64,000 nt of DNA from Cyanidioschyzon merolae (taxonomy: Eukaryota), in NCBI GenBank assembly GCA_000091205.1, contig AP006490.2; one strand, written 5' to 3'. Positions 1-50,689 of this stretch are shown one piece after another. A model generated the notes under the pieces. That model was given only the letters and a program-made list of their open reading frames with translations. It did not search any database and was not told the DNA's origin. The position numbers and the translations under genes were made by a program. Positions within the stretch are counted from its first letter, which is position 1. The number at the start of each line of letters is the position of its first letter.

Positions 1-1856
1 CTCGCACTTTGTGACATCTAGGCCTGTATCGGGCAGCGCGACTTATTTTGCAAACGTTCAAGGTAGATGAAGTGAAAGACTTGGTCGTGGGGATGCATTC
101 CGGGCCGAAAGCGCGAAACTGCCGGTGCGGTATCCCAAAGTCGTGAGGAAGGAGCCAAACCCCTGAACGTAAACCAGAGGGAGCTATCCAGCATTTGCAT
201 TGCCCGGTATGATCGCGAGTTGGGCATCACGGATGCGCGAAGGCATAGCAAGGAGTGGAATGATGGCATCAGGGCCTCGTTCGTATGCTCTGAGCACCGT
301 ATCGAGCTAAGAGGTACGCTGTGTACGATTCATTCAGTGGGCACAAGGCATGTCCATGGCTCATGTGGACGAACTTTGGTTGAAGCATATAGGACGGCGC
401 TGGGGTCACCAACGCTTGCGGTTGGACAGAGACAGGAGGCACGCACTCGCGCCCTTCTTCGATGAGCTGGAAACCGACTTGACCGATACCTGGCGTTGTT
501 TCGTGAGAGCGCATAGCGCTGGACGGGCTGTAGCGTGCAAACGCTGCACTCCTGGTTTCATCGACGAGGTCCTCTAACGAGTGCAGGAATCAATTCTATT
601 CGATGCCCATCGATGTGTTCACGACGACGCGTATGCGTTAAGAGTCCGAATGCAGGCTGAAACCGCAATACTAGAATAGCACGAAACACAGCCGGATGCG
701 TTGGATGGTGCGTGATACACGCAGCAAATTTCTGATGGAGAGGCAGTCGCAGATGAGCCGCTTGCCACGGTGTGATGCCGCAAACCACCACGCGTACAAG
801 CACTATCTGCATCCAGACTCGAGCGCCGCGATCAACATCCGGAATTGTCTCGAGCCTCGGCAGCGTCCAATGACTTGGCGAATTTTCGAGCGAATCGTTT
901 CGTGCTCACCGTTGGCACTATGCTGAGACGCCGCGGATCGTAGAAGAAAAGATTAGTCATCAAGAAAGGCAGGCTTCGATTCTCGCCCACAGCTCGACAA
1001 TGCCATGGTACCGTCCAGCGATCCAGCAATGCTCGAGCGCCGCCCATATGTACACGAACCTCAAGGGCAAGTGGTGAAAAACAGCAGTGTCCTGGCATTC
1101 GAAATTAGTCAGTATACGCGGATCCTCTGGGATGATATTACCTGTGTTGACGATAATGCTGGATGAAAAACGAGTGCACCAGCGAGAGAGAACGATCATC
1201 ATGCATACGCACGGAAACGCAGTACCGCAAGGCACAGCGCTTTTCTACCGACGTGTCGTCGATCACGGGTAGACCTTGACCTAGCCAACGGGTGCTAGCG
1301 TTGCCTCCAGTCCAACCAATTCGTCACCGAAAATACCGGGACTTGGCCTCGTGCAAGCACTGAGAGTCACTTGGGGCTAGCATTGACCGCGAGCATGTTC
1401 ACGACCATACCGCATTCCTAGAGTGAACGATGCCTGCTTGAATGATCTGTTCTCTAAAATCTACCTCCCTTGTACTCCATCAACGAAACTGGTCCCTACT
1501 TCTGTATGTGTTCTTCTCTGTCAATCTTCGACTCGTATCCAGCTGCTGACATGAATGCAGTTGCGAACACAGGCAGAGTGCATGCGACCCAAGCCCGCTC
1601 GCTGCCGCATGCTCGTTCGCTTCGTCATCATCATCATCAGCGACATCGACATCAGCCTCTTGACACGACCTACAGGCTTCTACACTGAACCTGGTGCCGT
1701 TGTTGCACGGTGCTGGCCTAGTGGTGTTCCCGAGTATATCGGGGCGTGCTTGCATTAGTACCTTTTTAACTGCGCACAAGCCCGTGAGAGGCCCGGCGCT
1801 GTCGCCATAGACGCACGACACCTGAAACGTCCAGTCGAGAGCACGTCGTGTGACAA

Positions 1857-4619
1857 GTGCTCAGAGCGCTGCTCGCGAGGTTGATGTTTGGTCTTGACCT
1901 GGCCAATGTCTCCTCTTTGTGTTGCTCAGCTTCGATCAGTGCATGGATGATGCTTTTCGTTCGAGTCATGCGTATGGTGTATTGTATGCTAGCCGCGCAA
2001 CGACACGCTCCCTCAACAGGAGCCCAAGCAGGAAACATATGCAAGAAGTCAACGCGTTCCGTTCGACTGCTGCTACTACTGCTGCTCTGTTCTAGTCTGA
2101 TGGACCCACAAAGCGCTCCCGGCCACGGAACAGTGGTCAACAACGGTCTGTACCTGTTTAGAGAGGCTTATACACCGACTCCGCACGACTCACCCGAGTT
2201 TCCGAACGCAACGCTGCCGTCGGCATGGAAGCGCTTCAACTACCATACCTATAGCAGCATGGTGATCACGCTAGCACGCTTAGCGTATTCATATCCTGCT
2301 TTTGCTCGTCTGTACACGACACAGGCAGCATTTGGACTACCAGCAGCTGGCGAATCATGTTCTATCGACACGCACCAACCCATGAGCCAAGAGGCGTTAA
2401 CGGGACTCGACCAGAAGCAGCGCCTCGCTGTAAAGCGCCTCATCGAAGAGCTTCGCACCCAGGATGGTCTGTCACGCAACGCTTGCCGTGTATGGGTACT
2501 CGAGATCGCCGACAGGTCTTCGGTTGCCCAGGGATCCGTCGGAAGCGTGCTGGATCCTCCAGCGATTCTCATTTCTGGTGCATTGCACGGTGATGAGCGC
2601 ATTGGCCCGACTGCGGTTACAGAGCTTGCACGCGTGCTCCTCGAAGCAAGCCGGCTGCCTGCGGGTTCAGTGGACACTCATCGTTGGCGCGCCTCAGCTG
2701 CCGAAGAAGCCGACGGATCCATTTTCGGTAGCACTGCGGGTTCGCTGTCCTCGTGGCTGCGTTTCCTGGTCGGACACCGACGTATCACCATTGTGCCTGC
2801 AGCCAATGCGATAGGGTTCGCGCTCGGCGAACGCACCGAACTGGGTGTCGATCCAAATCGGGACTTTCCCTGGAATCAGCCATACGGGGCGTCATGTTTG
2901 GAAAGCGTTGCCGCTCGCTCCATTCATGAACTCGTTTTAGCAAATACTTACCAAATGATGCTGACGTTTCACGGTGGAACAACGGTAATTGGTTACGAAT
3001 GGGGCGACCTGACGCATTGCCCTGAGCAGCAGTATTGCCGTCGCAACTCGCCAGCCCCAGATATAATTGCCATGCAAACGATTGCTTACGCTTTGCGATT
3101 GCATGCGGGGAACGGGACGCGTTATGGGGCGCGACCCTTTGACATCGGGACAATGGGCGATACCGTTTATCCGGTGGCAGGTGGAATGGAGGACTGGGCG
3201 TACGGCGCATCGGCCCCGGTGCAGACGTCACTTGTCTCGATTTGTAACGCGAGCCGATACGGCGGCTATGCACCCGTTAAAGTGCAGGCAGTGCGGCAGC
3301 TCCCCGTAGCGCGCATGATTGCCCTGCTCATCGAAACCGCTGATGATAAGCAACCTTCTGTGGAGACATTGGGCGTTCGACCGTTGGGCGCTGCCGGCAA
3401 TGCCCCCTGGCAGGCCGACGTTCGACTCATCACCGAAACGCCAACAGTGTCCGCGGATGGCTCGGAGTCAGATTCTGAACTGGTTGTCGAAGGGCACGTG
3501 TGGCGGAACTTGCGCCTCGCACTCCAGGCTATCGATATCCTGCAACCGTATGCGGCATTCACACGGTATCCCGGCGATGGACGAACGCAAGCAGCGGACA
3601 ACGCGACGGCCGCATCAATAGTCTGTTGGCGGGTCGGTGGAGCATACCACGTTGCTGAGACGCAGTTGCAAGGATGGTACGACTCTGGGGCTGCAGCGAG
3701 GATACGGCAGAATCAGGACAGTGCCCCGGACTTTGTGAGCGAGGCCTTCATAGACGCGTCTCCCGATCCGGTACCTTTCTTTCCAGCTGTTCGACTAGGA
3801 CAGGGTACCCGCTGGTCTCCTGATAATCATGGAGGTCGCGAGTTTTGTGTGAACCTCCAGCAGCAGCAGCAGCAGCAGCAGCAACCGTTCACCGGAGCAA
3901 AGCGTCCGCCACGGGGCTCCAGCATCCTGCTGCGCGTGCGCTTCCAGGCCGACGTCGACTGGGGTCGCTTACCGCCGAGTACGCTCGGAGCGCAGCCACC
4001 AAACACCAGGCCCTGGAGTTTTCTCGCCCAAAGTCGTGTGGAGTACAACTCTAACTCCACTAAATTTGCTGACGAGCGTCCGTCCACGTCCGAAGAAGAC
4101 GGTGTCGCTCGGGGCACAAACTGGTTCTCACGTGGACTCCACTGCCGAGCGTCTGAGGTGAGCACAGGGCATCAGCCGCAAGTCTGGACCTGCGTGCACA
4201 GTGAAGTCGCTAGAGGAACCGAATTAGGCGAGTCAGGGGCCATGTCCGGCTGGAGCAAGCTTTTGTTGGCGATCTCCGTCTTCCTCCTGGCGCCAGGGTC
4301 GTTTCCGCTGCTCCTGTTTCTCAGCTTTCTACTTTGGCGTCTGGTGCGAGGCCAGTCTGTGCATCCCGCTGAGGTATGGTTTGAGGCACGTCAACGAATG
4401 GAGATGTGGATGCAGGGACTAAGGGCGTTGGGACGGGCGCGAGGCCCAAGTGGAACTCGAGTTTCTGGGTCGTTTGCGCGTTCCACTGACCTCGACGACA
4501 CGAAACGCCGTATGCTTTCGCCGACAGCCAGCAGCGCCGCCGCAGCCGAGCGAGACGCTAGCAGCAGTGCACATGACCTGGACTTGGAGGCGAGCACGCG
4601 GCGCCCAGACAGGCCCTGA
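1857..4619 (+). CDS. Secreted M14 zinc carboxypeptidase. The catalytic domain is in the first ~480 aa. It is fused in the same ORF to a ~440-aa low-complexity C-terminal extension containing a Q9 tract and a hydrophobic TM-like segment. The true start is probably the ATG near 1986, which precedes a signal-peptide-like 'RSVRLLLLLLLCSSL'.
   Basis: M14 motifs read directly in the translation: zinc-ligand 'LHGDERIG' (HxxE), 'GVDPNRDFPW' (cf. GVDLNRNF), 'FHGGTTVIGYEWGD' (second His region), 'GGMEDWAY', 'LLIETADDK' (catalytic Glu region). The N-terminal 'YHTYSSMVITLARLAYSYPAFARLYT' is typical of the family. The C-terminal half has no recognisable domain. Confidence 0.7.
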   Translation: MLRALLARLMFGLDLANVSSLCCSASISAWMMLFVRVMRMVYCMLAAQRHAPSTGAQAGNICKKSTRSVRLLLLLLLCSSLMDPQSAPGHGTVVNNGLYLFREAYTPTPHDSPEFPNATLPSAWKRFNYHTYSSMVITLARLAYSYPAFARLYTTQAAFGLPAAGESCSIDTHQPMSQEALTGLDQKQRLAVKRLIEELRTQDGLSRNACRVWVLEIADRSSVAQGSVGSVLDPPAILISGALHGDERIGPTAVTELARVLLEASRLPAGSVDTHRWRASAAEEADGSIFGSTAGSLSSWLRFLVGHRRITIVPAANAIGFALGERTELGVDPNRDFPWNQPYGASCLESVAARSIHELVLANTYQMMLTFHGGTTVIGYEWGDLTHCPEQQYCRRNSPAPDIIAMQTIAYALRLHAGNGTRYGARPFDIGTMGDTVYPVAGGMEDWAYGASAPVQTSLVSICNASRYGGYAPVKVQAVRQLPVARMIALLIETADDKQPSVETLGVRPLGAAGNAPWQADVRLITETPTVSADGSESDSELVVEGHVWRNLRLALQAIDILQPYAAFTRYPGDGRTQAADNATAASIVCWRVGGAYHVAETQLQGWYDSGAAARIRQNQDSAPDFVSEAFIDASPDPVPFFPAVRLGQGTRWSPDNHGGREFCVNLQQQQQQQQQPFTGAKRPPRGSSILLRVRFQADVDWGRLPPSTLGAQPPNTRPWSFLAQSRVEYNSNSTKFADERPSTSEEDGVARGTNWFSRGLHCRASEVSTGHQPQVWTCVHSEVARGTELGESGAMSGWSKLLLAISVFLLAPGSFPLLLFLSFLLWRLVRGQSVHPAEVWFEARQRMEMWMQGLRALGRARGPSGTRVSGSFARSTDLDDTKRRMLSPTASSAAAAERDASSSAHDLDLEASTRRPDRP
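3858..3884 (+). repeat. (CAG)8-CAA microsatellite encoding a Q9 tract inside the carboxypeptidase ORF.
   Basis: Direct reading 'cagcagcagcagcagcagcagcagcaa'. The antisense frame gives poly-Cys, which is an artefact. Confidence 0.9.
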
Positions 4620-7109: not shown

Positions 7110-7585
7110 AAGAAGTGCGTTCACTATGAAGAAATAAGAAATCCAAGGGGTGAGCTGGGGTGCAAAGTCCTGCAGGTCGAGATGGCTAAAAAGCAGCGGA
7201 GCCCTGATGATATATAGAAAAGTATGGAGCGCTGAGAGAAGAGGAAACGAAGGGATGGCGCAAGTTCGAGGACTACTCGCACTGGCGGGTTTAAGCGGCG
7301 AGGGCAATAAACACGTGGAGTTCGTGAACCGAGACTTGAAAGCTGCTATCAATATCAGGAGATGCACGGTGCTGGAATGGAGACCTCCGGAGCTAACACG
7401 ATCCATCTCTGTAGGACAAACTTTTAAGGTGGAATTATACGATAATGTGTTGAAATCAGTTGTAGGCGGCCGGTCCAAGACGACGGAAACACGTCTGTAC
7501 GTCAGTCGGAGACGTTTTGTCTAGGGCGCTGGTCGCCTGCTACTGTACACCGTTGGCGTCGTTCGACTTTAGAACGGCGTTTGTC
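7110..7585 (+). mobile_element. Family-I Fanzor/TnpB-like element, 3' fragment (copy A). It covers the zinc-finger-like region, the RuvC-III motif and the conserved 3' terminal block, and is degenerate.
   Basis: The translation 'RGELGCKVLQVEMAKKQRSPDDI ... AQVRGLLALAGLSGEGNKHVEFVNRDLKAAINIRRCTVLEWRPPELTRS...VVGGRSKTTETRLYVSRRRFV*' matches copies B and C. It ends in the shared block 'ctagggcg...ctactgtacaccgttggcgtcgttcgact'. Stops and frameshifts are present. Confidence 0.6.
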
Positions 7586-8178
7586 GTTCGTGTGCAGTCG
7601 TCGATGTACGGGTTAGGCTCTCGAAACTAATCGTATAGAGTAGACCTGAATACAGTACGCGCTTTTGTCAAGTGCCTCGATCGTGCCAGGCGAGATGCAA
7701 GGCTCAAACCTCATGGCAGACATGGACGCTACCTGTGTGCACTGCCTCTGCCAAGATCGCCGGATCCGGAGGACGAAGCAGGCACCATAACTTGGACAAC
7801 GACAGCAGCATGGAATTGAATTGAACTGCCAGCAGTTCCAGAACATAACACGGGATAGAAGCAAAATTCAGGTCAGTTCCTTAATCCGGCGTCCGTGCGG
7901 CATGCATAAGAAGCATAGGGATGAAACGTATATCCGTGTTCAGGAACACCACCGTACGTTGTTTGGTTACGATCAATAAAACTAACGAAATTCCTAATGA
8001 GTAGAGCGATGCACACCTCATCCGCACGAGCGTAGGATACTACGATGGCTACGCTTTTGATTGAAGCGTCGAGAGGAATCGTGTCAGGCGCCTGCATCCC
8101 CTTGTATGTCAGGGCGGTACTGCGATGGGCGGGAGCGTCGGCACCAGCGACATAGCCTATAACAGGAGATCGTTCTGC

Positions 8179-10975
8179 GTGAGTTTCCGATCTAGGACAC
8201 TTGCTTTCCGCTGCAGCGCGATGCGAACACGCATGTGCCAATGCGGGGTGTCGGACACGTGTCCTTCATCGATCGGTGAGGCGTCTCGCGCGGTGCACGC
8301 ATCGCGCTCGGTGAGTGCACCTCGTAGATCGGGCAGTCAACTGACACGATGCGCATGCCGCCGTTGAAGAGTAACGCGATTGGGATCAGTAGCGTGTAGC
8401 TGTAACGTAAAAGCTGGATTTCAGGTGAGGTCTTAGCCAAGTACAGTCTTTCAGTTCATTTTTGTTTCAGCCCTCAAACAAGTGTATTCAAGTGTTTTTT
8501 TCGCAGTGTATAACAGAAGCGTTCAAAGAGCGTTCTTGTTCAAAAAAACTAAAAAAGGAAAGATATGAAAAAGCAAGTCGACGATCCTGGAGGCACAGGG
8601 TCGCCGGCTGCCAGAAAAAAAAACAAAAATCAGTACCGAGTCCAGAGGAAAAGGAGGAGAAGAGGAAGGACCGAAATGGGGAGGTCCTACGTCGAAGGCG
8701 ACAAGAAAGACGACTTTACGACCAGATGGTGGATAAAAGCTGTCTTCTTAAACATATCTATGATCCCTACAGGGAAAAGTTGCGAGACGCTATCAAAGAA
8801 CGTGTTGCGTCATACTCGAAGAGTATTGTCAAGGCGTCATCAGGACTAGTGCATTTGGCGAGGGAGATGTATCGCGACGTGGCGCACATGGAAACGGTCG
8901 AGATTCCGGACGAGTTTTTCGACAAGACCTGTATTCGTCACCTGATGGTTGGTAGCGAGGAAGCGCGGAGGGAAAATATGCTATTGCATGCCCTGCACGA
9001 AAACATCGCGGAATTCTGCTTCGAGGGTACCCCATTCAGGGGTGACCCGGATATTTACACATACGGGGCGATGAAGTACCTCACGAACCTGAAGAACCTT
9101 TTGACAATGAACCTGGACCGTTTCGTAGTACGCGCCGTATTTTTGTGCTCTACCCGCGCGTCTCTCGCAACGGGATATGGACAATTTCAATGCCATCACG
9201 AAAGATCGTAAGCATGAATATGAGGTCGAATTTGTCGACAAGAAGCCGTCACGCAGGAGAGCAAATGATGATTCCGTCATCCGTTTGGTCATACAAGAGC
9301 ACCGTGCGGTACTGGGGTTGGCGAATCCAACAGAAAGGATATCAGAGTTAAAAAACGATAAGGAAAGATACGATCGCCTCATTCTGCGGTATTTAGTGCT
9401 TCTAGACCTAGAACTTGAATGCAAGGCAGAGATGAAGCTGAGTGGGGAAAAATGAAGAGTGGGAGAGACGGAAGGCTTTCCTTATGGGTAAGCGCTTCAA
9501 CGTCGTACCAGTGTGCAACATCAAGTCGCATTTTGTGACCGTCGACTCCATAGTCCTTTACAGCATCATGATGGAGATCAGTCCGGAGTTGAATGTTAGC
9601 AGGGAGGAGTTCACCGGCGAAAACCGGGAGACGTACTGGAAGAGCATCTTCGATTTCAAACGTCTCAAAGTAAGCAAACAAAAGGTATTCACTGGGATGA
9701 TCGAAACCGATGGAGTAGCCATGTGTGTACACTCTCGGCGGTTGAAGAAAGATCGTCCTGGCCCGCCTTTGGCTTCGCCCGTGACGAAGGATGAAGAAAA
9801 CAAAGAGGAGGATCCTGCGATGTAGGAGGTAGTGGGCAACAACGTTGCCGTTGACGTGACGAAGTATGAAGATGAGAAGGAGGCGGAACCTGCGACGCAG
9901 GAGGTGGAGGATAACGACCTTGTCGTTGCCGCGGCGAAGTATGAAGATAAGAAGGAGGCGGATCCTGTGATGCAGGAGGTGGAGGATGACGACTTTGCCG
10001 TTGGCGCGGACCCCGGAAACACAAATATCATCACCATCGCAGCACCGAAGCGTGCGGAAGATGGTACTGGCGGCAACTTACGCCAGAAAGACATGTGACT
10101 TTTGAGGTTCTCGAGCGCGAAATACTATCGAGAATCGGGAATAATGAATGCGAGGAAACAATTCGAGATATGGTATGCAGGAGTGAAAGCGCATTTGAAG
10201 CGATCAGCCAGGTGACGAGCCGTGGAACGAACTTTGAAGCTTTTCGGATATTCGTGAAAGTTCGTGTTGCCCATTTGGAGGCGCTGTGGAAAGAGTATAT
10301 AAAGCCCAGATGGGCTCGTTTGCGTATGAATCTGTACTGTGGTAAGCAGCGTGCGTTCGCGAACTTTTTCAATCATTTGAGCACCCTGAAAGAGGACAAG
10401 ACTCAAAGGCTCGAAGTAGCGTATGGGGAGGGGCGCTGGCTCACCCAAAAAGGGTACACACCAGTTCCAACGACAAGAACTTACTAGGAGTGCGCAAGGC
10501 GTTTCGTTACGGTACCGATCGATGAGTTTCGAACATCGTACACACACCACGAGCTGGGGTGTACACTTCAGTGGGTCGAGATGGAAAAGTGTCAGCGGAG
10601 CTCTGAAAATACAAAAAAGTACGGACCGCTGACGGAAGAGCAAATGGAAAGGAGGGCGAAAGTTCGAGGGCTACTCGCATTAGTAAGTACAGTCAGTGGC
10701 AAGAAACGTATCGAGTTTGTGAATCGTGACTTTACCGCAGCTATCAACAGAACGAGATGTGCGGTGATGGAAGGTAGACCGCCAGACTAGACAAGAGAGA
10801 ACTTTGTTGGACAACCTCTCAAAGTGGAATCATATGAGACAAACTTGAAACAAGTAGTAGGTGGCCCGTCGAAACAGACTGGCACGCGTCTGCACTTCAG
10901 TTGGAGCCGTTTTGACTAGGGCGGGTCACTCGCCACTACTGTATACGGTCGGCGTCGTTCGACTTGCGAACGGCA
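8179..10975 (+). mobile_element. Family-I Fanzor/TnpB-like element, full-length but degenerate (copy B). It has a ~385-bp 5' leader, a ~2.35-kb nuclease ORF broken into at least six frames, and a conserved ~60-bp 3' terminal block. The right end lies ~63 bp upstream of the VAMP7-like ATG.
   Basis: Nucleotide and protein collinearity with the inverted copy at 45852-48498 over the whole length, including the non-coding leader (8179-8565 vs revcomp 48115-48498). Boundaries are set where similarity to the other copies stops: 'cgtgagtttcc...' on the left and '...gtcgttcgact' on the right. Confidence 0.7.
8565..10917 (+). pseudogene. Fanzor/TnpB-like RNA-guided endonuclease pseudogene (copy B). It starts 'MKKQVDDPGGTGSPAARKKNKNQYRVQRKRRRRG...' with an NLS-like basic cluster and is interrupted by several frameshifts and stops.
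   Basis: The segments collinear with TnpB are a RuvC-I-like '[24 protein letters not shown]' (cf. 'GIDLGxxxxaTxS'), a RuvC-II region '...RLEVAYGEGRW...', a 'PIDEFRTSYTHHELGC' block (cf. 'VdpaYTSQtCsxCG') and RuvC-III 'KRIEFVNRDFTAAINRTRC' (cf. 'DRDxNAAxNI'). Confidence 0.65.
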
Positions 10976-10990
10976 TTCTCTAGCGGTGCC
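10880..10990 (+). ncRNA. Candidate omega-RNA / right-end scaffold of family I. It spans the 3' end of the nuclease ORF plus the conserved terminal block. This is hypothetical.
   Basis: The ~60 bp immediately after the stop codon is conserved in all three copies: 'ctagggcgNNNNNNNcactactgta(c/t)acggtcgg(c/g)gtcgttcgact'. In TnpB/Fanzor systems the guide RNA is encoded at exactly this position. No expression data are available. Confidence 0.2.
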
Positions 10991-11037
10991 AGCTTTTAAA
11001 CGCGCTCGAGTCGAACGGAAACTCGATTTGAGAAACC

Positions 11038-11799
11038 ATGGGAGACGCTGGTGCGCCCACTTCGAGTGACAACGTTCCGAACCTGCTGTACTGCGCTATT
11101 TGTCGTTGGGAAGACCGTGTGGTCCTTGCTCGGTACGCTGCGCCCCGGGCAGGAGTCGCACTCGCTGAAACCGGTGCGAGCACCGCCGCCTTCGCGGAGA
11201 CCCTAAGACGCATTCTCCAGTCGAAAAAGATAGCCGAGCACAAGCGCTTAACCATTGAAGAAAAACAACTGGGAATGATCCACTACGACAACGACGGTAC
11301 CTGCATGTACGTGGTATTCTGTCGCGCGTCGTACCCGCAGCGCCTTGCGTTCCAGTTCCTGAACGAGCTGCGGTCGGAGTTCTTGCGCACAGTCGGTAGT
11401 CGCCCTGAAGACGTCGCTTCTGCGACCGAGAATAGCTTGACGAAGCTGTGTCGGCCGTTGATGAGCGAGCTCTGTACCCTGTACGATACGCCTTCGGGAC
11501 TGGATAAGATGTCGCGGATTCGCATGCAGGTCGAGGAGGTCAAGGGCCACATGCAGGACAACATCCACCAAGTTATGAAAAACACCGACGACTTGGAGCA
11601 GCTACAGACGCAGTCGGAGGGTCTGCGCGGGGAGGCAAGTGCTTTCCATCGTTCAGCTGGCACCGTGGAACGCAAGTACTGGTGGAAGAACGCTCGGATG
11701 ATCTGCGTTCTCGTCGTGCTCGTGATACTCATCATTATCGCCATCATCGTTCCGATTATTGTGACACGAAATAACAACAGCAGCAGCTCCTCTGGTTGA
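11038..11799 (+). CDS. Longin-domain R-SNARE (VAMP7/synaptobrevin-like) with a C-terminal transmembrane anchor.
   Basis: N-terminal longin-like region ('LLYCAICRWEDRVVLARY...'). SNARE motif with the central Arg ('RIRMQVEEVKGHMQDNIHQVMKNTDDLEQLQTQSEGLRGEASAFHRSAGTVERKYWWKN'), followed by a hydrophobic TM ('MICVLVVLVILIIIAIIVPIIV'). Confidence 0.8.
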   Translation: MGDAGAPTSSDNVPNLLYCAICRWEDRVVLARYAAPRAGVALAETGASTAAFAETLRRILQSKKIAEHKRLTIEEKQLGMIHYDNDGTCMYVVFCRASYPQRLAFQFLNELRSEFLRTVGSRPEDVASATENSLTKLCRPLMSELCTLYDTPSGLDKMSRIRMQVEEVKGHMQDNIHQVMKNTDDLEQLQTQSEGLRGEASAFHRSAGTVERKYWWKNARMICVLVVLVILIIIAIIVPIIVTRNNNSSSSSG

Positions 11800-32847: not shown

Positions 32848-33794
32848 AAAGGAAACGCGCATCGTGCAGTTCCGGATGAGATTGGCAAGCCGCCCCCGCA
32901 CCTGGACGCGTAACGTACGTGGTGCCGCTGCCGCCGCCGCAACAGCAGCAGCGAGCATGCCCTGAATACGCTACGCATCGCTCCGAATCAGAAAAAGAAC
33001 AGAAATGGACCACGAATTACCGGTTAGAGAATCGTATCTTTCCTGCTATACGGTTCGCGTTGACCGGTTATTCGAAATTTTACGTTCTAGGCGGAATGCT
33101 CCGCTAGCAGGACGAGTCTGCCAGGATAATGTTTCGTGCTCCCGCCAGCGACAGGTGATGTAGCGAGACATGAACAACTCGTCCGCAACGCTCTTTATTC
33201 TGCGACTAGGGACAGTTAAGGTGCGTATGGGCGCCGCCCATGTTGCAATTATCTCCTAGCATATCGCTTCGCGCTGCCTGCAGCAGCGCGTCTGCCTGCA
33301 CAGCTTGCAGGCTCCGAAAATGATAAAGAATCCCGACTCCGTATCAGGTGAAGCGTTCCTCGATCCGACGCTCTCATTGGTATGGCAAAGCCGCTCTGTC
33401 TCTGTGCTGCATCCGTGCCAGAGGCATTGGCGCTATTGCTGGTGCTCAAAACAGGTACTCTGCGCAAGACGGAACGCACGGAACGACCATTATCTCTGAG
33501 GGGCATTGTGCATACTGGAACTCGGACGTAGTGCTACGCATGACAGACGCTTTCACCAGCACCGATATCCATCACGTAACCTGGAGCTCCTTACACAAAT
33601 ATATCAACGTTCTGTCGATCGAAATCGATATTCTCTCAGTATCTCCGAGAGGATGGATGGGTAATGGACCTTGAACATACCGCGAAGCATGACAGGCGCT
33701 TTCACGGACACCGATACTCATCACGGAACCTCGAGTTCCAAATCCAAATATATCAACGTTCTTTCATGTAAGAAACAGGATCGCCCCCGAATCG

Positions 33795-45241: not shown

Positions 45242-45688
45242 TCAGGGACCAGCGCGGCCAAGCTTTTCCTTGAGCACTCGCAAAAGTGGCTCAGCCTTGT
45301 CCGGCTCCAGTCGGGGCCCGCCACCGGGATGGCGGATCAAACCATCACCAGGTTTGCGCGGAATAATATGGATGTGCACGTGCGGCACAACCTGGCCGGC
45401 CTCCCGTCCGTTATTTACCAGTAGGTTGTATGAGGGTGCACCCACCGCCGCTTTGATCGCTTTTCCTAAGAGAGGCACTCGCGCGAAAACCGCGGACACC
45501 TCCTCGGGAGGCATCGTCTCGAGCACCTCGTGATGCGACCGCGGTACCAGTAACGTATGCCCCGAAGTTGCTGGAAACAGATCGAGAAACGCAGTACAAT
45601 TCTCGTCACTGAAAACCTTGTAGCATGGAAGCTCACCACTAATGATTTTACAAAAGATGCAGTCTTGTGCTGGGTCTGACGAGGCCAT
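45242..45688 (-). CDS. HIT-family hydrolase (Hint-like histidine triad protein). The likely start is 'MASSDPAQDCIFCK...' near 45688; the listed ORF extends upstream into the adjacent repeat end.
   Basis: 'CIFCKIISGELPCYKVFSDENCTAFLDLFPATSGHTLLVPRSHH' and the histidine triad 'HVHIHIIPR'. Confidence 0.8.
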   Translation of the reverse strand: MASSDPAQDCIFCKIISGELPCYKVFSDENCTAFLDLFPATSGHTLLVPRSHHEVLETMPPEEVSAVFARVPLLGKAIKAAVGAPSYNLLVNNGREAGQVVPHVHIHIIPRKPGDGLIRHPGGGPRLEPDKAEPLLRVLKEKLGRAGP

Positions 45689-45851
45689 CCTCAGCGAGCG
45701 TCGTGAACTTGGCTCCGGAGTACCACAGCGCACCGGCCGCCTGCAAGTGAAAAGATATTGCTTCCGTGCGCACCTGCTCGCCAACTTCCCGATAGCGAGA
45801 CTTGACGCGGTCCAAGCGGGTAGTGCGCTCCTCTGCAGCGAAACAAACATA

Positions 45852-48498
45852 GAACCACAGTCGAACGACCCCGACCGTGTACAGTAGTGACAAACACGCC
45901 CTAGACAAGAAGTCGCGAACTGGCGTACAGACGCCTCCCCGTCTGTTTGGACCGGCCCCCTACTACTGCTTCCATTTTTTTCTCATATAGTTCGACTTTG
46001 AGAGGTTGTCCAACAAAGTCCTCTCTTGTCAGCTCTGGATGTCTCTGCTCCAGCACCGCACATTTCCTTATATCGATAGCGGCATTAAAATCTCGATTTA
46101 CAAACTCCATCCGTTTCTTGCTATCATTCGTTGTACTAACCAGCGCAAGTAGCCCTCGCACTTTCGCTCTCCTTCCCATTCGCTCTTCCTTCAGCGCACC
46201 CTACTTTGCTATGTCCTCAGGGCTCCGCTGGCACTTTTCCATCTCGACCCTCTGAAGTGTACAACCCAGCTCGTGGTGTGTATACGATGTTCGAAATTCA
46301 TCTATCGGCATTGTACCAAAACGCCATGCGCACTCCTTATACGTTCTCGTCGTTGGAGCTGGCGTAGTTCCTTTTTGGGTCTTCCATCGCCCTGCTCCGT
46401 ACGCTACTACGAGCCATTGACTCTCATCCTCCTTCATGGCGCTCAACTTATTGAAAAAGTTGGCGAACGCCCGCTGCTTCCCACCGTACAGATTCATTTG
46501 CAGACGAGCCCACCGGGGCTTGGTATACTTCCCCCACAGTGCATCCCAACGAGCAACGCGAACTTCCATGACTTTCCGAAAAGCTGTAAAGTCCGCCCCG
46601 CGACTCGTCACCTCGCTCAAAGCTTCCAGGTGATCCTTCATTCCTGCATTCCATGTCTCGATTTTTTCCTCGCATTGATTATAAAGGATTCTCGGTAATG
46701 TCTCTATCTTTAGAACTGAAAAAGACACATGTCTTTCTGACGTAAGTTGCCGTCAGTACCATCTTCCGCACGCTTCGGTGCTGTGATGGTTATGATATTT
46801 GTGTTTCCGGGGTCTGCGTCAACGATAAACTCGTAATCCTCTACCTCTTGCGTCGCAGGATCCTCCTCTTTCTCATCTTCATGCTTCGCCGAAGGCAAAG
46901 CCGAGGGCGGAACATGGCGATCCGCCTTCAGCCGCCCATAGTGTACACACAAGGCTACTCCATCGGTTTCGATCATCCTAACGAAGAACATCTGCTTGCT
47001 CACTTTCAGAAGTTTGAAACTGAAGATGTTCTTCCAGTACGTCTCCCGATTTTCGCCGGTGAACTCCTCCCTGCTAACATTGAACTCCGGACTGATCTCC
47101 ACCATGATGCCATAGAGGACTCTGGAGTCGATAGTCACAAAATGCGACTTGATATTGCACATTGGAAACATGTTGCAGCGCTTTCCCATTAGGAAAGCCT
47201 TCCGTCTCTCCCACTCTTCATTTTTTCCTCACTCAGCTTCACCTCTGCCTTGCGTTCGAGCTGTCGGTCCAGAAACACGAAATAGAGCAGGATGACTTGA
47301 TACCATCTTTTTTCATCAATTTTCAACTCTGATACCTTGTCTGTTGGATTCGGTAGCCCCAGTACCGCACGATGCTCTTGTATAACCGCACGGATCGCGG
47401 AAGCTTCATTCGTACTCCCTTTTGACGCCTTCTTGTCGACGAATTCGACCTCATCTTCATGCTTGCGATCGTACGTGATGCCATTGATAATCGCCCATTT
47501 TCCACTGCGAGAGATGCCCGGGTAGAGTGCAAACACGGCGTGTAACATGAAACGTTCGAGGTTCACTGTCAAATGGTTCTTCAGGTTTGTGATGTACTTC
47601 ATCGCCCCATAGCGGTAAATATCCCGGTCACCCCTGTATCGAGTACTCTCGAACCTGTAAAAGGGATGTGTTTCGTGCAAGGCATGCACTAGCATATCTT
47701 CCCTCCGCGTTTCTTCTCTACAAAGCATCGGGTGACGAATACAGGTCTTGTCGAAAAACTCGTCTGGAATCTCGACTGGTTTGACGTCCGTCACTTCGCG
47801 ATACATTTCCCTCGCCAAATGCATCAGTCCTGACGACGCCTTGAAAATACTCTCGGAGTACGAGTCGACACGTTTTTTGATAGCGTCTCGCAACTTTTCC
47901 CTGTAGGGATCCTTGATATGTTTGAGAAGACAGGTTTTCACCACCATCTTGTGGTACGGTCGTCTTTCTTGCAGCCTTCGACGTAGGGCCTCCCAATTTC
48001 GGTCCTTCTTCTTCTCCTCCTTTTCCTCTGGACTCGGCACTGTTTTTTTTTCTGCCAGCCGGTTACCCTGGGCCTCCAGGATCGTCGACTTGGATTTTCA
48101 TATCTTTCCTTTTTTTCGTTTTTTTGAACAAGAACGCTCTTTGAACGCTTCTGTTATATACTGCGAAAAATCAATCGAATATTTTTACTTGAGGTTTGAA
48201 GCACAATCGAACTGAAAGACTGTACGTTGCTATGACCTGAGCAAAAATACAACTTTTACAGTAGATCTACACGCTAGAGATCAGGATCACGTTTCGCTTC
48301 CATGACGGAATACGCGTCTTGTCTCATGCCTGCCCGATCTACGAGGTGCGCTCGCTGAGCGCGTTGCGCGCACCGCGCGAGACGCCTCACCGATCGATGA
48401 AGGACACGTGTCCGACGTCGCTTCGGCACATTCGTGTTCGCATCGCGCTGCAGCGGAAATCAGCTGTCTTAGATTGGAAACTCACGTATCTAGCGCCG
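45852..48498 (-). mobile_element. Family-I Fanzor/TnpB-like element, inverted copy C, the most intact copy. It sits between the HIT gene (~160 bp from the element's 3' end) and the C2H2 zinc-finger gene (~285 bp from its 5' end).
   Basis: Collinear with copy B over its whole length on the minus strand. It ends in the shared 3' block (revcomp of 45852-45913 = 'ctagggcgtgtttgtcactactgtacacggtcggggtcgttcgact') and starts with 'cgtgagtttcc' (revcomp at ~48498). Confidence 0.7.
45901..48200 (-). pseudogene. Fanzor/TnpB-like RNA-guided endonuclease, nearly intact (~740 aa). It is split into four ORFs (47189..48040, 46710..47189, 46201..46728, 45901..46179) by two single-nt homopolymer frameshifts and one in-frame TAG. 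There is an additional A9-run frameshift between the ATG 'MKIQVDDPGG' and the main frame.
   Basis: RuvC-I '[24 protein letters not shown]', RuvC-II region 'QWLVVAYGAGRW', 'MPIDEFRTSYTHHELGCTLQRVEMEKCQRS' (zinc-finger position), and RuvC-III 'KKRMEFVNRDFNAAIDIRKCAVLE'. The frame breaks are at 'gaggaaaaaatgaag' (A6, where A7 would be continuous) and 'atgtgtctttttcag' (T5, where T6 would be continuous). The TAG aligns to TAC (Tyr) in copy B. Confidence 0.65.
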
Positions 48499-48781
48499 AT
48501 TCGCGCGTAGCGCGCCGTTGAGCTCGCACCGGCGGCCGTCGTCGCCGCCGCCGGCCGCCGGTGCCGGCCGCCGTAAAGCGCCTCTGCGCGCCAACGATTC
48601 GCGTATCGCCAGGACGTATCGTTGTGGCTTGTCTGCGGTCGGTTGCAGTTCGTACTGTGGTGGCGCAAACGTCGTCGGAAGTGTCTTTGGAGCTGAGTTT
48701 GTTGTGCGCGCGGCGAGCTCACAGTTCCCGCAGCAAAAAGTTACTCTTGCCGGTTAGTAACAGTTTTCCGACGTCGTCTTC

Positions 48782-50689
48782 TTGAGACCTTTTCCGATGC
48801 AGGAACGGAATAGGGAGAGCGCAAAGGAGCAGTCAGCTGGCGAACCAGCACAGCAGGTGGACATGTGGGCGTCACTGATGGGATCCAGCCCGATTCTTAA
48901 ACTCGAAAAATTGAACAACGTCATGATGGAGGTTCCTCCTTGCGTCGGCTCGCTAGGAATTGAGCGTTGGTACGGACAGGACGCGCGCTACTCGAAGGAC
49001 GCTAGTGCAGGCGTCGGTGCGAACGAAGAGCAGGCGCCCGACACAAGCCGAGACTGCTCGTTTGATGAGACACTTTCCGTGTCCAGTAGCTCGACAAGCG
49101 CAGTGACAGGCGCACCCACTCTGAATACTGATAACAGAGTAGACGCACCGTTTGTCCCTGGAACAACGGCAGGCACGAGCGCGCTCCGGTTTGTGTGCCC
49201 GCGTTGCGAGCGCTCTTTCTCGTCCGCATCACACTTGCGTCGGCACACTCGCGACGTACACCAGAACGTGAGAAAGCACGGCTGTGATTTGTGCGGCATG
49301 GCCTTCAAACGACGACAACACTTGACTTCGCACTATGAGGCGTGTGCCCGCCGGTTGAGGTATCCGATGCGGCCGGATCAAAATGCATGTTTGGTAGGGA
49401 CACACCCGTCGCATGCACCGGCTGGGGTCATACAGGAGCATGGGCCCCAGCATGACGTCGCTTGCAGGACATCTGATGTGATGTTGACTGATGCGGAACG
49501 GTTCCTACCGCCGCTGAATCCAGTTGACAGTGCCCATCGACGATGTGTTCGAGGGCCAGCGGCAGCCGCTGCCGCCCCTGTGGCCTCGGAACGTCGCAGC
49601 CGTTTGCAGAAACGCGAGAAGGCGCATAGTTGTAGTGATCTGCTGCTACTCGATCAGGCGGAGCGCAATGCCGCGAAACTGTATGCGGAGTCCCGACCCC
49701 CTGCGGATTGGTTCTCAGAACTTCATAGTTCATCGCTGGCCTCGAGCGCGGCCTCAAATGAAACCGTTCTGATGGGTGAAGTCGAGTGTACCGGCGGCAA
49801 ACGCGGTAAGGGACTAGAATCTTGCTACGGCGTGCCGGGCTCCACCCTCGAGGATCGGCTAAGCTTCTTTACGAATAATTCTTCCGGGACAGGCTCGTAT
49901 CCAGACTGGCTGGCAGGATTCCGAGATGCCTCCAGTGAGGTAATGCGCGCTCGCAGTGCCTCGGATCCGAGCACCTGCATGCCGCCTCAGGATGCCCGTC
50001 GAGCAGTGACGCTGTCGCAGGCAGCACCTCATGCACAAGGCGCTGCTCTCGACACTACACTTCGAGCATCAAGGTCAGATTCCCGAGAATCCGCTGATCC
50101 GGAAATGTTGCGGATCCTGGATTCTTATGCCCGATATGTTTGTATATCGAAACTTTTTGAAGATACCGTGACCAAGTTGCGTGGCACTGATACCGGATCG
50201 GACGCAAAGTCGACAGCGGCGGCATCATCTGCAGCGAAGATGCAGCCTCCGATGCTGGATGAGCTGTACGCTATCATCTCGGAGGGTTCGCATCTGGCCC
50301 CTGATTCGGCAAGTTGTCCACATCATCAGAGCATGCCCGTGAGCTCGACCGCACCAACTGGTGCCACCACCAATGCGGCAGCTCCAAAACGGGGCGAATC
50401 GCTTCATGCTGACGCTTTAATGGCACCTGCACCACTCCCCACCAACCTCTACACCCATATTCCATCGGACACCTGTGGTGATGAGCGCTGCTGGCGAGAT
50501 GAATCGATGCGATTTCATGTTGGTGAACGCTCAGGGCGCTCGAGACCTTATCGTGAATGCCCCCAGGGCGTATCGGCAATGAACAGTGCGGGCTCAAGTG
50601 GTCGCAGCAGAGCGCCTTCTGCCATGAAGAATCGAGGGCCACCCCAGACTGGAGCATCTGGAGACGAATCCGGGTCCGGAGGGCTTTGA
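48782..50689 (+). CDS. C2H2 zinc-finger protein (two tandem C2H2 fingers near aa 140-190); the rest is low complexity.
   Basis: 'FVCPRCERSFSSASHLRRHTRDVHQNVRKHGCDLCGMAFKRRQHLTSHYEAC' is two C-x2-C...H-x3-5-H units. Confidence 0.55.
   Translation: MRPFPMQERNRESAKEQSAGEPAQQVDMWASLMGSSPILKLEKLNNVMMEVPPCVGSLGIERWYGQDARYSKDASAGVGANEEQAPDTSRDCSFDETLSVSSSSTSAVTGAPTLNTDNRVDAPFVPGTTAGTSALRFVCPRCERSFSSASHLRRHTRDVHQNVRKHGCDLCGMAFKRRQHLTSHYEACARRLRYPMRPDQNACLVGTHPSHAPAGVIQEHGPQHDVACRTSDVMLTDAERFLPPLNPVDSAHRRCVRGPAAAAAAPVASERRSRLQKREKAHSCSDLLLLDQAERNAAKLYAESRPPADWFSELHSSSLASSAASNETVLMGEVECTGGKRGKGLESCYGVPGSTLEDRLSFFTNNSSGTGSYPDWLAGFRDASSEVMRARSASDPSTCMPPQDARRAVTLSQAAPHAQGAALDTTLRASRSDSRESADPEMLRILDSYARYVCISKLFEDTVTKLRGTDTGSDAKSTAAASSAAKMQPPMLDELYAIISEGSHLAPDSASCPHHQSMPVSSTAPTGATTNAAAPKRGESLHADALMAPAPLPTNLYTHIPSDTCGDERCWRDESMRFHVGERSGRSRPYRECPQGVSAMNSAGSSGRSRAPSAMKNRGPPQTGASGDESGSGGL

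Follow-up and report, generated by a model that had tools for sequence, protein, structure and literature searches.

Copy C lies between a HIT gene and a C2H2 zinc-finger gene in the window, that is, the whole stretch of 64,000 nucleotides of Cyanidioschyzon merolae contig AP006490.2 that was analysed (Table 1). An earlier note, made from the sequence alone, had described it as a single minus-strand unit of ~2.65 kb at 45852-48498; the unit was recovered with bounds close to these, the 5′ limit being placed where homology to the other copies of its subfamily ends and the 3′ limit (~45835) at the end of conservation among 52 copies. Two other copies or fragments of the same family lie in the opposite orientation, in line with the description of copy C as inverted, and a Pfam scan of the other ORFs of the unit was empty, as expected from the statement that it carries no separate transposase ORF. 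The VAMP-like protein encoded in the window has exactly the sequence of BAM79839.1 / XP_005536125.1 from C. merolae 10D.

Table 1. Features of the copy C locus, in window coordinates.
Feature	Position	Strand	Evidence or remark
CMe-1A copies/fragments	8178-10964 and 7151-7579		inverted relative to copy C
HIT gene	45245-45688	-	Pfam HIT, E 2e-26
Copy C, 5′-truncated, decayed CMe-1A Fanzor1 element (very probable)	45835-48488	-	blastn, pairwise alignment, copy comparison
3′ non-coding tail	45835-45900	-	degraded hairpin, degraded terminal palindrome, then G/T-rich end
Fanzor1 (CMe-1) pseudogene	45901-48101	-	ATG at 48101, original stop at 45903-45901
RuvC-III motif NRDFNAAIDI	46069-46098	-	catalytic Asp codon intact
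Premature stop, codon 635	46201-46203	-	TAC to TAG
IDEFRTSYTHHELGC, alternative catalytic Glu, then degenerate zinc-ribbon position	46261-46305	-	alignment
VVAYGAGRW, canonical RuvC-II position	46384-46410	-	Gly replaces Glu; alignment
1-nt deletion, codon 480	46665-46666	-	frameshift
Premature stops, codons 465 and 467	46704-46712	-	TAA at 46712-46710, TAG at 46706-46704
RuvC-I motif (13 residues)	46782-46820	-	catalytic Asp codon intact
Acidic repeat, one 25-aa (75-bp) unit	46821-46886	-	other copies carry 1-6 units
DUF8286 (PF26935) conserved core, 15 residues	47124-47168	-	upstream of RuvC-I, in the N-terminal half
1-nt deletion, codon 293	47226-47227	-	A7 to A6, frameshift
Basic, NLS-like N-terminal stretch (EEKEEKKKDRNWEALRRRLQERRPYHK)	47948-48028	-	read from the sequence
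5-nt deletion in A-run, codons 19-20	48047-48048	-	frameshift
Premature stop, codon 13	48063-48065	-	TCG to TAA
5′ non-coding leader	48102-48488	-	homology to consensus and subfamily
C2H2 gene	48782-50686	+	zf-C2H2, E 4e-9

Copy C is very probably a decayed member of CMe-1A, a family of Fanzor1 mobile elements of C. merolae. It is not new: CMe-1A, with its protein CMe-1, was published already in 2013 as a Fanzor1-only, non-autonomous family of ~150 copies, with a consensus of 3169 bp and a protein of 734 aa (Bao & Jurka 2013, Mob DNA 4:12; PMC3627910 and its supplementary files); CMe-1A and TE-N2_CMe were left unassigned as to class by these authors. By blastn and pairwise alignment, consensus positions 660-3137 align to window positions 48351-45877 with 85.9% nucleotide identity, which fits the decay described for the family (~80-85% identity to the consensus; PMC3627910). 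The family and copy C have in common the genome, the lack of TIRs, the lack of a transposase ORF and verbatim motifs, namely NRDFNAAI and a 23-residue stretch, both of which occur in the published CMe-1 (PMC3627910).

Unlike the consensus, copy C starts at consensus position 660 and is devoid of the first 659 bp, the TE-N2_CMe module, whose presence as the 5′ 635 bp is a trait of CMe-1A. In its place stand ~137 bp of another 5′ sequence, common to a CMe-1A subfamily: the leader matches consensus 660-905 from 48102 to 48351, while the stretch from 48352 to 48488 is shared only with the subfamily (copy B, L036, L080, L074 and others), in whose members the leader homology reaches further upstream than in copy C. 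At the 3′ end, where the family consensus terminates in ...GAAAGGCG, both the hairpin (consensus CGCCA..TGGCG) and the terminal palindrome (consensus CGTTCGA-CTT-TCGAACG) are degraded, with 4 of the 7 bases mutated in the right arm of the latter. Copy C is, from these comparisons, a truncated or variant CMe-1A copy and not a full-length member.

The minus-strand frames are colinear with a protein of ~735 aa, in good agreement with the ~740 aa proposed earlier, and in a codon-wise alignment the pseudogene is colinear with the published 734-aa CMe-1 at 78% amino acid identity. Four ORF fragments remain (283, 159, 175 and 92 aa), all of them matching the family profile in colinear order with E-values from 1e-17 to 1e-57. 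The NLS-like basic N-terminus that had been pointed out is present, as judged by inspection of the sequence and not by an NLS predictor; N-terminal NLSs are common among Fanzors (PMC10530073). The DUF8286 assignment derives from a precomputed Pfam tag on the corresponding ORF fragment in orthologous loci; the core residues of copy C are invariant across the family, and a literature search on this domain returned nothing useful.

All the nuclease motifs quoted in the earlier note were found, and RuvC-I, RuvC-II and RuvC-III follow one another in the TnpB/Fanzor order, with a rearranged RuvC-II glutamate. In rearranged RuvC sites, Gly or Pro occupies the canonical RuvC-II Glu position and the Glu is relocated (PMC10530073). 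Copy C contains DADPG, VVAYG...IDEFRTS and NRDFNAA, consistent with the Fanzor1 pattern of Asp, relocated Glu and Asp. Across the family, the D, E and D columns vary little or not at all, and copy C retains all three residues; the alternative catalytic Glu in IDEFRTSYTHHELGC, as well as the Arg-Asp and Asn columns, is invariant in 60/60 relatives.

Direct searches were empty: no match was obtained in a Pfam scan of the ORF fragments and the reconstructed protein (with a Pfam set lacking PF26935), in a single-sequence phmmer search of the PDB with the CMe-1 lineage, or with Pfam Cas12f1-like_TNB for the CMe-1 lineage itself, the latter profile matching 18/60 relatives. The profile built on 60 relatives reached the solved Fanzor1 proteins in the PDB (PpFz1 9cf0, E 9e-22; SpuFz1 8gkh, 2e-14; GtFz1 9cer, 1e-9) and matched no other nuclease family. 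We also used an AF2 model of P0001, which is a 65%-identical relative and not copy C (pLDDT 81.3, pTM 0.79); with this model, the top seven Foldseek matches were all Fanzor1 (E 7e-17, TM 0.71), SpuFz, PpFz and GtFz coming before Cas12 and TnpB. By this comparison the family has a RuvC (RNase H-like) fold split by an insertion and a Fanzor1 architecture overall. The link between CMe-1 and Fanzor1 runs through the profile or the model of the 65%-identical relative, not through a direct sequence match. The classification of copy C as a Fanzor1/TnpB-like, nuclease-only element is correct, as the earlier note had it; it is borne out by the profile and fold comparisons together with the publication of CMe-1A as Fanzor1.

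The same note had described the zinc finger as non-canonical, which is the case, and as unusual for a functional protein; it is not peculiar to this copy. CMe-1 is devoid of the C4 zinc ribbon (OrfB_Zn_ribbon / Cas12f1-like TNB) and has H, H, C and C in non-canonical spacing. The C4 set is likewise lost in 59/60 aligned relatives, which have three Cys or fewer in the zinc-ribbon segment, and in P0038, a 29%-identical relative, this segment holds zero Cys or His. The missing C4 ribbon is a clade-wide trait and not decay of copy C. The C4 ribbon has been listed as strictly conserved and as part of the motif defining Fanzor1 (PMC3627910); despite its absence the Fanzor1 assignment was kept, since homology and fold decide the matter and CMe-1 is listed as Fanzor1 by the very authors who defined the motif. 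A literature search on the loss of the zinc finger in Fanzor1 gave nothing of use.

The solved Fanzor1 proteins (SpuFz1 8gkh, 9ceu-9cez; PpFz1 9cf0-9cf3; GtFz1 9cer-9cet) have only 12-16% sequence identity to CMe-1. They keep Cys pairs after DE[FY]xTS (TSSFCPKC in PpFz1), whereas CMe-1, like nearly all its relatives, does not; unlike them, CMe-1 carries a lineage-specific insertion of ~25 aa at the zinc-ribbon position and a variable acidic 25-aa repeat before RuvC-I. Compared to bacterial TnpB (ISDra2, 8h1j) and to Cas12f/CasPhi, CMe-1A has neither a TnpA partner nor a zinc ribbon, and CMe-1 has a much larger N-terminal half, a basic N-terminus, a relocated catalytic Glu and a eukaryotic host.

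Codon-by-codon alignment to the published consensus identified seven disabling lesions in copy C, four premature stops and three frameshifting deletions, in place of the three or four single-nucleotide changes that were previously thought to separate it from a continuous ORF. Two of the stops need two base changes each to revert, and a shorter repair path exists only if ~20 codons (46728-46666) are read in the wrong frame, which hides two stops. Programmed frameshifting was rejected on account of the four stops and of the different length of the deletion that copy B carries at the same A-run. Some copies of CMe-1A are intact according to the 2013 paper (PMC3627910); copy C, in contrast, has no intact coding capacity, its lesions recur in independent assemblies, and it is a pseudogene and not a candidate active eukaryotic RNA-guided nuclease. 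No fully intact ORF was found in the 80 related metagenome loci kept out of 332 matches, among which the existence of intact copies was therefore not confirmed; the most complete ORFs of this set (L005-L007) have no in-frame ATG and end early.

The earlier note had considered the element near-intact, and recently active or still functional. All three catalytic codons do survive, the ORF fragments are long, and the dN/dS of copy C against the consensus is 0.40, hence below 1. Nevertheless, it is very unlikely that copy C still functions as an RNA-guided nuclease gene or lost this function only very recently, since to the in-frame stops and frameshifts are added the 5′ truncation and the broken 3′ palindrome, a divergence of ~14% from the consensus, and a best paralogue that is only 84.8% identical (median 81%, 85 loci). 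Moreover, strains ~1% different are broken in the same way: in L086-L089, four metagenome assemblies independent of one another, the same copy is found at the same locus, 98.8-99.0% identical, and its ORFs (159, 175 and 92/87 aa) occupy matching relative positions. The broken state is fixed in related environmental strains. The low dN/dS is common to all copies (0.29-0.43 in 16 others) and is thus a trace of selection that acted on active ancestral lineages and not on copy C; it points to past purifying selection on the CMe-1 protein (dN/dS 0.3-0.4). At sequence level the functional reading of copy C is refuted. These assemblies also bear on the idea that the frame breaks are homopolymer errors of sequencing or assembly in an otherwise intact gene, for which it could be said that the three frameshifting deletions all lie in or beside A-rich homopolymer runs. 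Such errors are extremely unlikely to be the explanation, as the four assemblies agree in ORF sizes and positions, four of the lesions are stops that arose by substitution (a double one in two cases), and base by base L086 and L088 differ from the window within the element by two indels only, at 48051 and 48006. The A-run at 48047/48048 is polymorphic in length in the environmental orthologues.

Co-option of the remnant as a promoter or other 5′ regulatory sequence of the downstream co-oriented HIT gene is also conceivable, given that ~150 bp separate the 3′ end of copy C from the HIT start codon, downstream on the same strand, that copy B ends ~65-85 bp before the VAMP-like gene, likewise co-oriented, and that related strains retain the insertion. 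We consider this improbable: the cases are just two, a third copy (L005) precedes a gene on the opposite strand, and the element evolves no slower than its flanks, with a divergence of 0.9-1.1% against 0.36-0.7% in the environmental assemblies. Furthermore, in a compact genome most tolerated insertions are necessarily near genes anyway. Taken with these alternatives, copy C is, with little doubt, an old, fixed, non-functional CMe-1A insertion.

By analogy with other Fanzor1 proteins, CMe-1A would be RNA-guided. Each element of the active era would have encoded a single ~734-aa protein. Its N-terminus would be basic, its N-terminal half helical and REC/WED-like, and its RuvC nuclease split, with the Asp of the DPG motif, the relocated Glu of the DEFRTS motif (~33 residues past the Gly found in place of the canonical RuvC-II Glu) and the Asp of the NRDxNAA motif as the residues used. 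An RNA made from the 3′ end of the encoding element would be bound by this protein, which would cut guide-matching DNA beside a short adjacent motif; this would help the element to persist or spread. Movement would rely on an enzyme encoded elsewhere. Because of its stops, frameshifts, lost 5′ module and mutated palindrome, copy C can no longer carry out any of these steps, and it now drifts neutrally in the 5′ intergenic region of the HIT gene. Activity, RNA or expression data for the CMe-1A family were not found in the material searched, nor did the literature search find a published test of a red-algal Fanzor; a Chlamydomonas Fanzor1 that was tested gave no cleavage in vitro (PMC10530073). 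As for the guide RNA, the consensus 3′ end can form an 8-bp long-range pairing of AGUAGUGG with CCACUACU, plus two hairpins. RNAalifold predicted only 3 pairs on the 3′ end, the pair counts were not above those of shuffles (81/500 and 125/500), the 3′ stems had no covariation, and Rfam gave no match at gathering or E <= 1 thresholds. Absence of covariation is expected if the differences among copies are mostly post-insertion decay, so that it argues neither for nor against an omega RNA.

At the level of the family, we tentatively propose, as a possibility that we hold to be rather doubtful, that CMe-1A/TE-N2_CMe are rolling-circle (Helitron2-like, HUH-mobilised) non-autonomous elements and that CMe-1 belongs to a large C4-less Fanzor1 clade that evolved under purifying selection. 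The suggestion of a Helitron2-like element comes from the apparent T-run target sites, ~14 of the 17 listed distinct 5′ junctions adjoining a T-rich run, from a 10-bp asymmetric terminal inverted repeat (consensus 5-14 with 3098-3107, a length reached by 4/2000 shuffles), and from the subterminal 3′ hairpins of the consensus. The Helitron2-borne Fanzor1 elements of Chlamydomonas (CRe-1/2/3; PMC3627910, PMC10530073) are, like CMe-1A, nuclease-only and non-autonomous, have no TIRs, and share with it many 5′-variant or truncated copies, 3′ subterminal hairpins and apparent insertion beside T-runs. They differ in that ~62 bp separate the 3′ repeat copy from the end of the 3169-bp CMe-1A consensus, versus 20-30 bp in Helitron2, and in that C. 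merolae has no known RepHel partner. These end features belong to the family and not to copy C, which has no 5′ end. The CMe-1 clade comprises 2161 cluster representatives (50% identity, E <= 1e-3), and one relative is from the green alga Tetrabaena.

Fanzor1 in C. merolae was catalogued in 2013, and copy C is a correct call of a known repeat. The by-products of the analysis, namely the clade-wide loss of the C4 ribbon, the past purifying selection and the Helitron2-like look of the ends, are of minor value; they are leads and not results, for instance for resurrecting the consensus CMe-1 as a heat- and acid-adapted nuclease, or for classifying the element. If the family-level reading were true, the CMe-1 clade would be a zinc-independent RNA-guided nuclease lineage, with versions from a thermoacidophilic alga among its members.

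The interval between the HIT-domain and C2H2 zinc-finger genes holds four colinear minus-strand ORFs in a mechanical ORF list, and all the motifs quoted in the earlier note, which had proposed a near-intact and possibly active Fanzor/TnpB-like locus here, are present in the reverse-strand sequence. This element, copy C, is low in G+C (49% compared to about 55%) and has a coding strand strongly skewed towards purines, a signature mirrored at 8-10 kb of the window, where self-BLAST identified a second copy (copy B), inverted relative to copy C. The ORFs, the motifs, the compositional signature, the second copy and the neighbouring genes together establish that the observation is real and far beyond chance. 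The other ORFs within the copy C unit gave zero Pfam family matches. On the 5′ side of copy C, immediately outside the element and before the C2H2 gene, lies an imperfect GC-rich palindrome (GGCCGGCGGCGGCGACGACGGCCGCCGG region).

Coordinates of CMe-1A-related features and neighbouring genes in the window
Feature	Position	Strand	Basis or correspondence
Remnant of a second Fanzor1-like gene	76-923	+	
3′ fragment of CMe-1A copy	7151-7579	+	consensus 2738-3169; consensus alignment (self-BLAST: 7152-7568)
Copy B	8178-10964	+	consensus 648-3145; self-BLAST
Solo TE-N2_CMe-like module	33072-33584, also 33637-33731	-	consensus 33-543, 79% identity
HIT-domain gene, neighbour of copy C	45245-45688	-	
Copy C	48351-45877	-	consensus 660-3137, 85.9% identity; consensus alignment
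Copy C ORF 1	48040-47189	-	ORF list
Copy C ORF 2	47189-46710	-	ORF list
Copy C ORF 3	46728-46201	-	ORF list
Copy C ORF 4	46179-45901	-	ORF list
GC-rich palindrome	48526-48564		
C2H2 zinc-finger gene, neighbour of copy C	48782-50686	+	

Neither the copy C fragments nor the reconstructed protein matched Pfam or PDB sequences directly. A homologue search retrieved 38 relatives, nearly all metagenome copies of the CMe-1A family, and also gave one intact 662-aa protein (29% identity). Searching 1.8 billion cluster representatives with a profile yielded 2161 relatives (E ≤ 1e-3); these include many intact proteins 600-700 aa long and one member from the green alga Tetrabaena socialis. Searched against the PDB, a 60-sequence profile matched Fanzor1 chains only (Parasitella 9cf0, E 9e-22; Spizellomyces 8gkh, E 2e-14; Guillardia 9cer, E 1e-9), and 18 of its 60 members matched the Pfam family Cas12f1-like_TNB. 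Furthermore, we modelled P0001, a relative 65% identical to copy C, with AlphaFold2 (pLDDT 81.3, pTM 0.79); the best seven Foldseek matches were all solved Fanzor1 structures (E 7e-17 to 4e-13, TM up to 0.71). Both a TnpB/Fanzor/Cas12 profile match and a RuvC-like fold were thus found, so the proposed classification stands: copy C was correctly identified as a Fanzor1 element.

The family has been described before. CMe-1A is the one Fanzor1 family reported for C. merolae (Bao & Jurka 2013, PMC3627910). Its copies, about 150 in number, individually share about 80% identity with a ~3-kb consensus; they lack TIRs, and their TSDs are undetermined. The initial 635 bp of the consensus are the repeat TE-N2_CMe (PMC3627910). 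The supplementary files of that paper contain the 3169-bp consensus and its 734-aa protein, CMe-1, which carries a 23-residue stretch and NRDFNAAI verbatim as in the motifs of the earlier note.

Codon-by-codon alignment to the CMe-1A consensus ORF revealed in copy C four premature stops (codons 13, 465, 467 and 635), three deletions that shift the frame (of 5 nt at 48047/48 and of a single nt at both 47226/27 and 46665/66) and one 3-nt in-frame insertion, rather than the three or four changes from a continuous ORF previously claimed; two of the stops presumably escaped that reconstruction because another frame is, by coincidence, open through both. Copy C lacks consensus positions 1-659; its 5′ region is a different one, of which it shares 137 bp with a subfamily, and since other subfamily members extend further upstream, copy C is 5′-truncated at 48488. 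The family 3′ end comprises a conserved hairpin (CGCCA...TGGCG), a terminal palindrome (CGTTCGA-CTT-TCGAACG, or the variant CGTTTTTC-TTTT-GAAAGGCG) and a short G/T-rich end; 4 of 7 bases of the palindrome right arm are mutated in copy C. Among 85 loci, its closest paralogue reaches 84.8% identity and the median is 81%. The same insertion was found between the same genes in four independent metagenome assemblies, 98.8-99.0% identical to the copy C locus. Their ORFs, of 159, 175 and 92/87 aa, occupy matching relative positions, and divergence is 0.9-1.1% in the element versus 0.36-0.7% in the flanks. From the shared fragmented ORFs and these divergence figures it follows that the lesions are real, that the insertion is older than strain divergence and that copy C is drifting neutrally. 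With seven lesions, a 5′ truncation and a mutated palindrome, copy C is a decayed, truncated pseudogene, and its reading as near-intact or functional cannot be maintained.

The 60 aligned relatives (alignment A2) show little or no variation in DPG(R/N)xNI, in the DEFRTS Glu or in RDxNAAxNI, and all three catalytic-residue codons are kept in copy C. At the canonical RuvC-II position the sequence is VVAYG, its Gly replacing the TnpB Glu, and a conserved Glu lies about 33 residues downstream of this Gly; this arrangement is the 'rearranged catalytic site', essential in Fanzors (Jiang et al., PMC10530073). The C4 zinc ribbon, called strictly conserved by the 2013 paper (PMC3627910), is absent (region of P0001 residues 656-724): the segment between the Glu and the RuvC-III Asp has at most three Cys in 59 of the 60 relatives and zero in 10, and just one, P0191, keeps a C4-like set. 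In its place the relatives conserve RGLLWCxST, where CMe-1 has RGLLALVSTT, and CMe-1 carries a lineage-specific insertion of about 25 aa in the zinc-ribbon region. A compensating HHCC zinc site in CMe-1 is unlikely, because conservation of these His/His/Cys/Cys residues is limited to its own copies. The zinc finger is indeed non-canonical, as had been noted, and not an oddity of copy C; by the Cys counts, the ribbon was lost long ago throughout the clade, a loss that coexists with intact ORFs and is no sign of copy C decay. We found no mention of this clade-wide loss in the literature searched.

Chlamydomonas Helitron2 elements carry Fanzor1 and insert after TTTT (PMC3627910, PMC10530073). Similarly, most of 17 distinct junctions listed (metagenome loci L017, L025, L026, L055, L062, L064, L067, L072, L081 and others) place the full-length CMe-1A 5′ end next to a stretch rich in T, usually TTTT(T)(C). 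The consensus contains an asymmetric inverted repeat of 10 bp (5-14 with 3098-3107; length reached by just 4 of 2000 shuffles), hairpins lie subterminally at the 3′ end, and in many copies the 5′ region is variant or truncated. Although published as unclassified (PMC3627910), the family looks Helitron2-like, and we hypothesise such an affiliation; copy C cannot bear on it because it has no 5′ end. In other Fanzors the guide RNA overlaps the ORF 3′ end and the element right end (PMC10530073). By analogy, we infer a guide-RNA step for CMe-1A, whose scaffold would be encoded by the 3′ 200-300 nt. At the consensus 3′ end, AGUAGUGG could pair with CCACUACU over 8 bp as a long-range stem, and two hairpins are possible; RNAalifold retains just three pairs there, explicit pair counts gave no excess over shuffles and Rfam gave zero matches.

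Copy B, also a pseudogene, contains three tandem copies of a 75-bp unit, which encode a 25-aa acidic repeat immediately ahead of RuvC-I. Related loci have between 1 and 6 such units, and the region is disordered in the AF2 model (pLDDT ~30, P0001 residues 374-469). Window positions 7151-8177 (+) hold the CMe-1A 3′ fragment and then a spacer of about 600 bp, followed by copy B, and this order recurs in metagenome loci L080 and L022 (~80% identity), which may mean that a composite subfamily exists or that tandem insertion happened repeatedly. The TE-N2_CMe-like module is the 5′ end of full-length CMe-1A. The VAMP/longin gene adjoining copy B has exactly the sequence of BAM79839.1 / XP_005536125.1 of C. 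merolae strain 10D and is also found on many hot-spring metagenome contigs. Both copies end about 65-150 bp upstream of a same-strand host gene (copy C at the HIT gene, gap 45688-45835; copy B at the VAMP-like gene, gap 10964-11038), which may reflect tolerated 5′ intergenic insertion or promoter donation, two cases being anecdotal. At the window start, which cuts it, lies a highly degraded remnant of a second, far more divergent Fanzor1-like gene, with weak colinear matches to family-profile positions 365-417, 440-485 and 567-592 spread over three frames (E 3e-7 at best); it is about 30% identical to CMe-1 aa 429-689. The 2013 survey lists just one Fanzor family for the genome (PMC3627910).

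None of the 80 loci examined, out of 332 matches, has a fully intact ORF. Relative to the consensus, changes at third codon positions are about twice those at second positions, and copy C has a dN/dS of 0.40, within the 0.29-0.43 range of 16 other copies. The codon-position bias and dN/dS thus show that much of the 14-20% divergence accrued in active lineages, with purifying selection acting on the protein. The 2013 paper remarks on long-lasting coding capacity (PMC3627910), and the dN/dS range puts figures on that remark.
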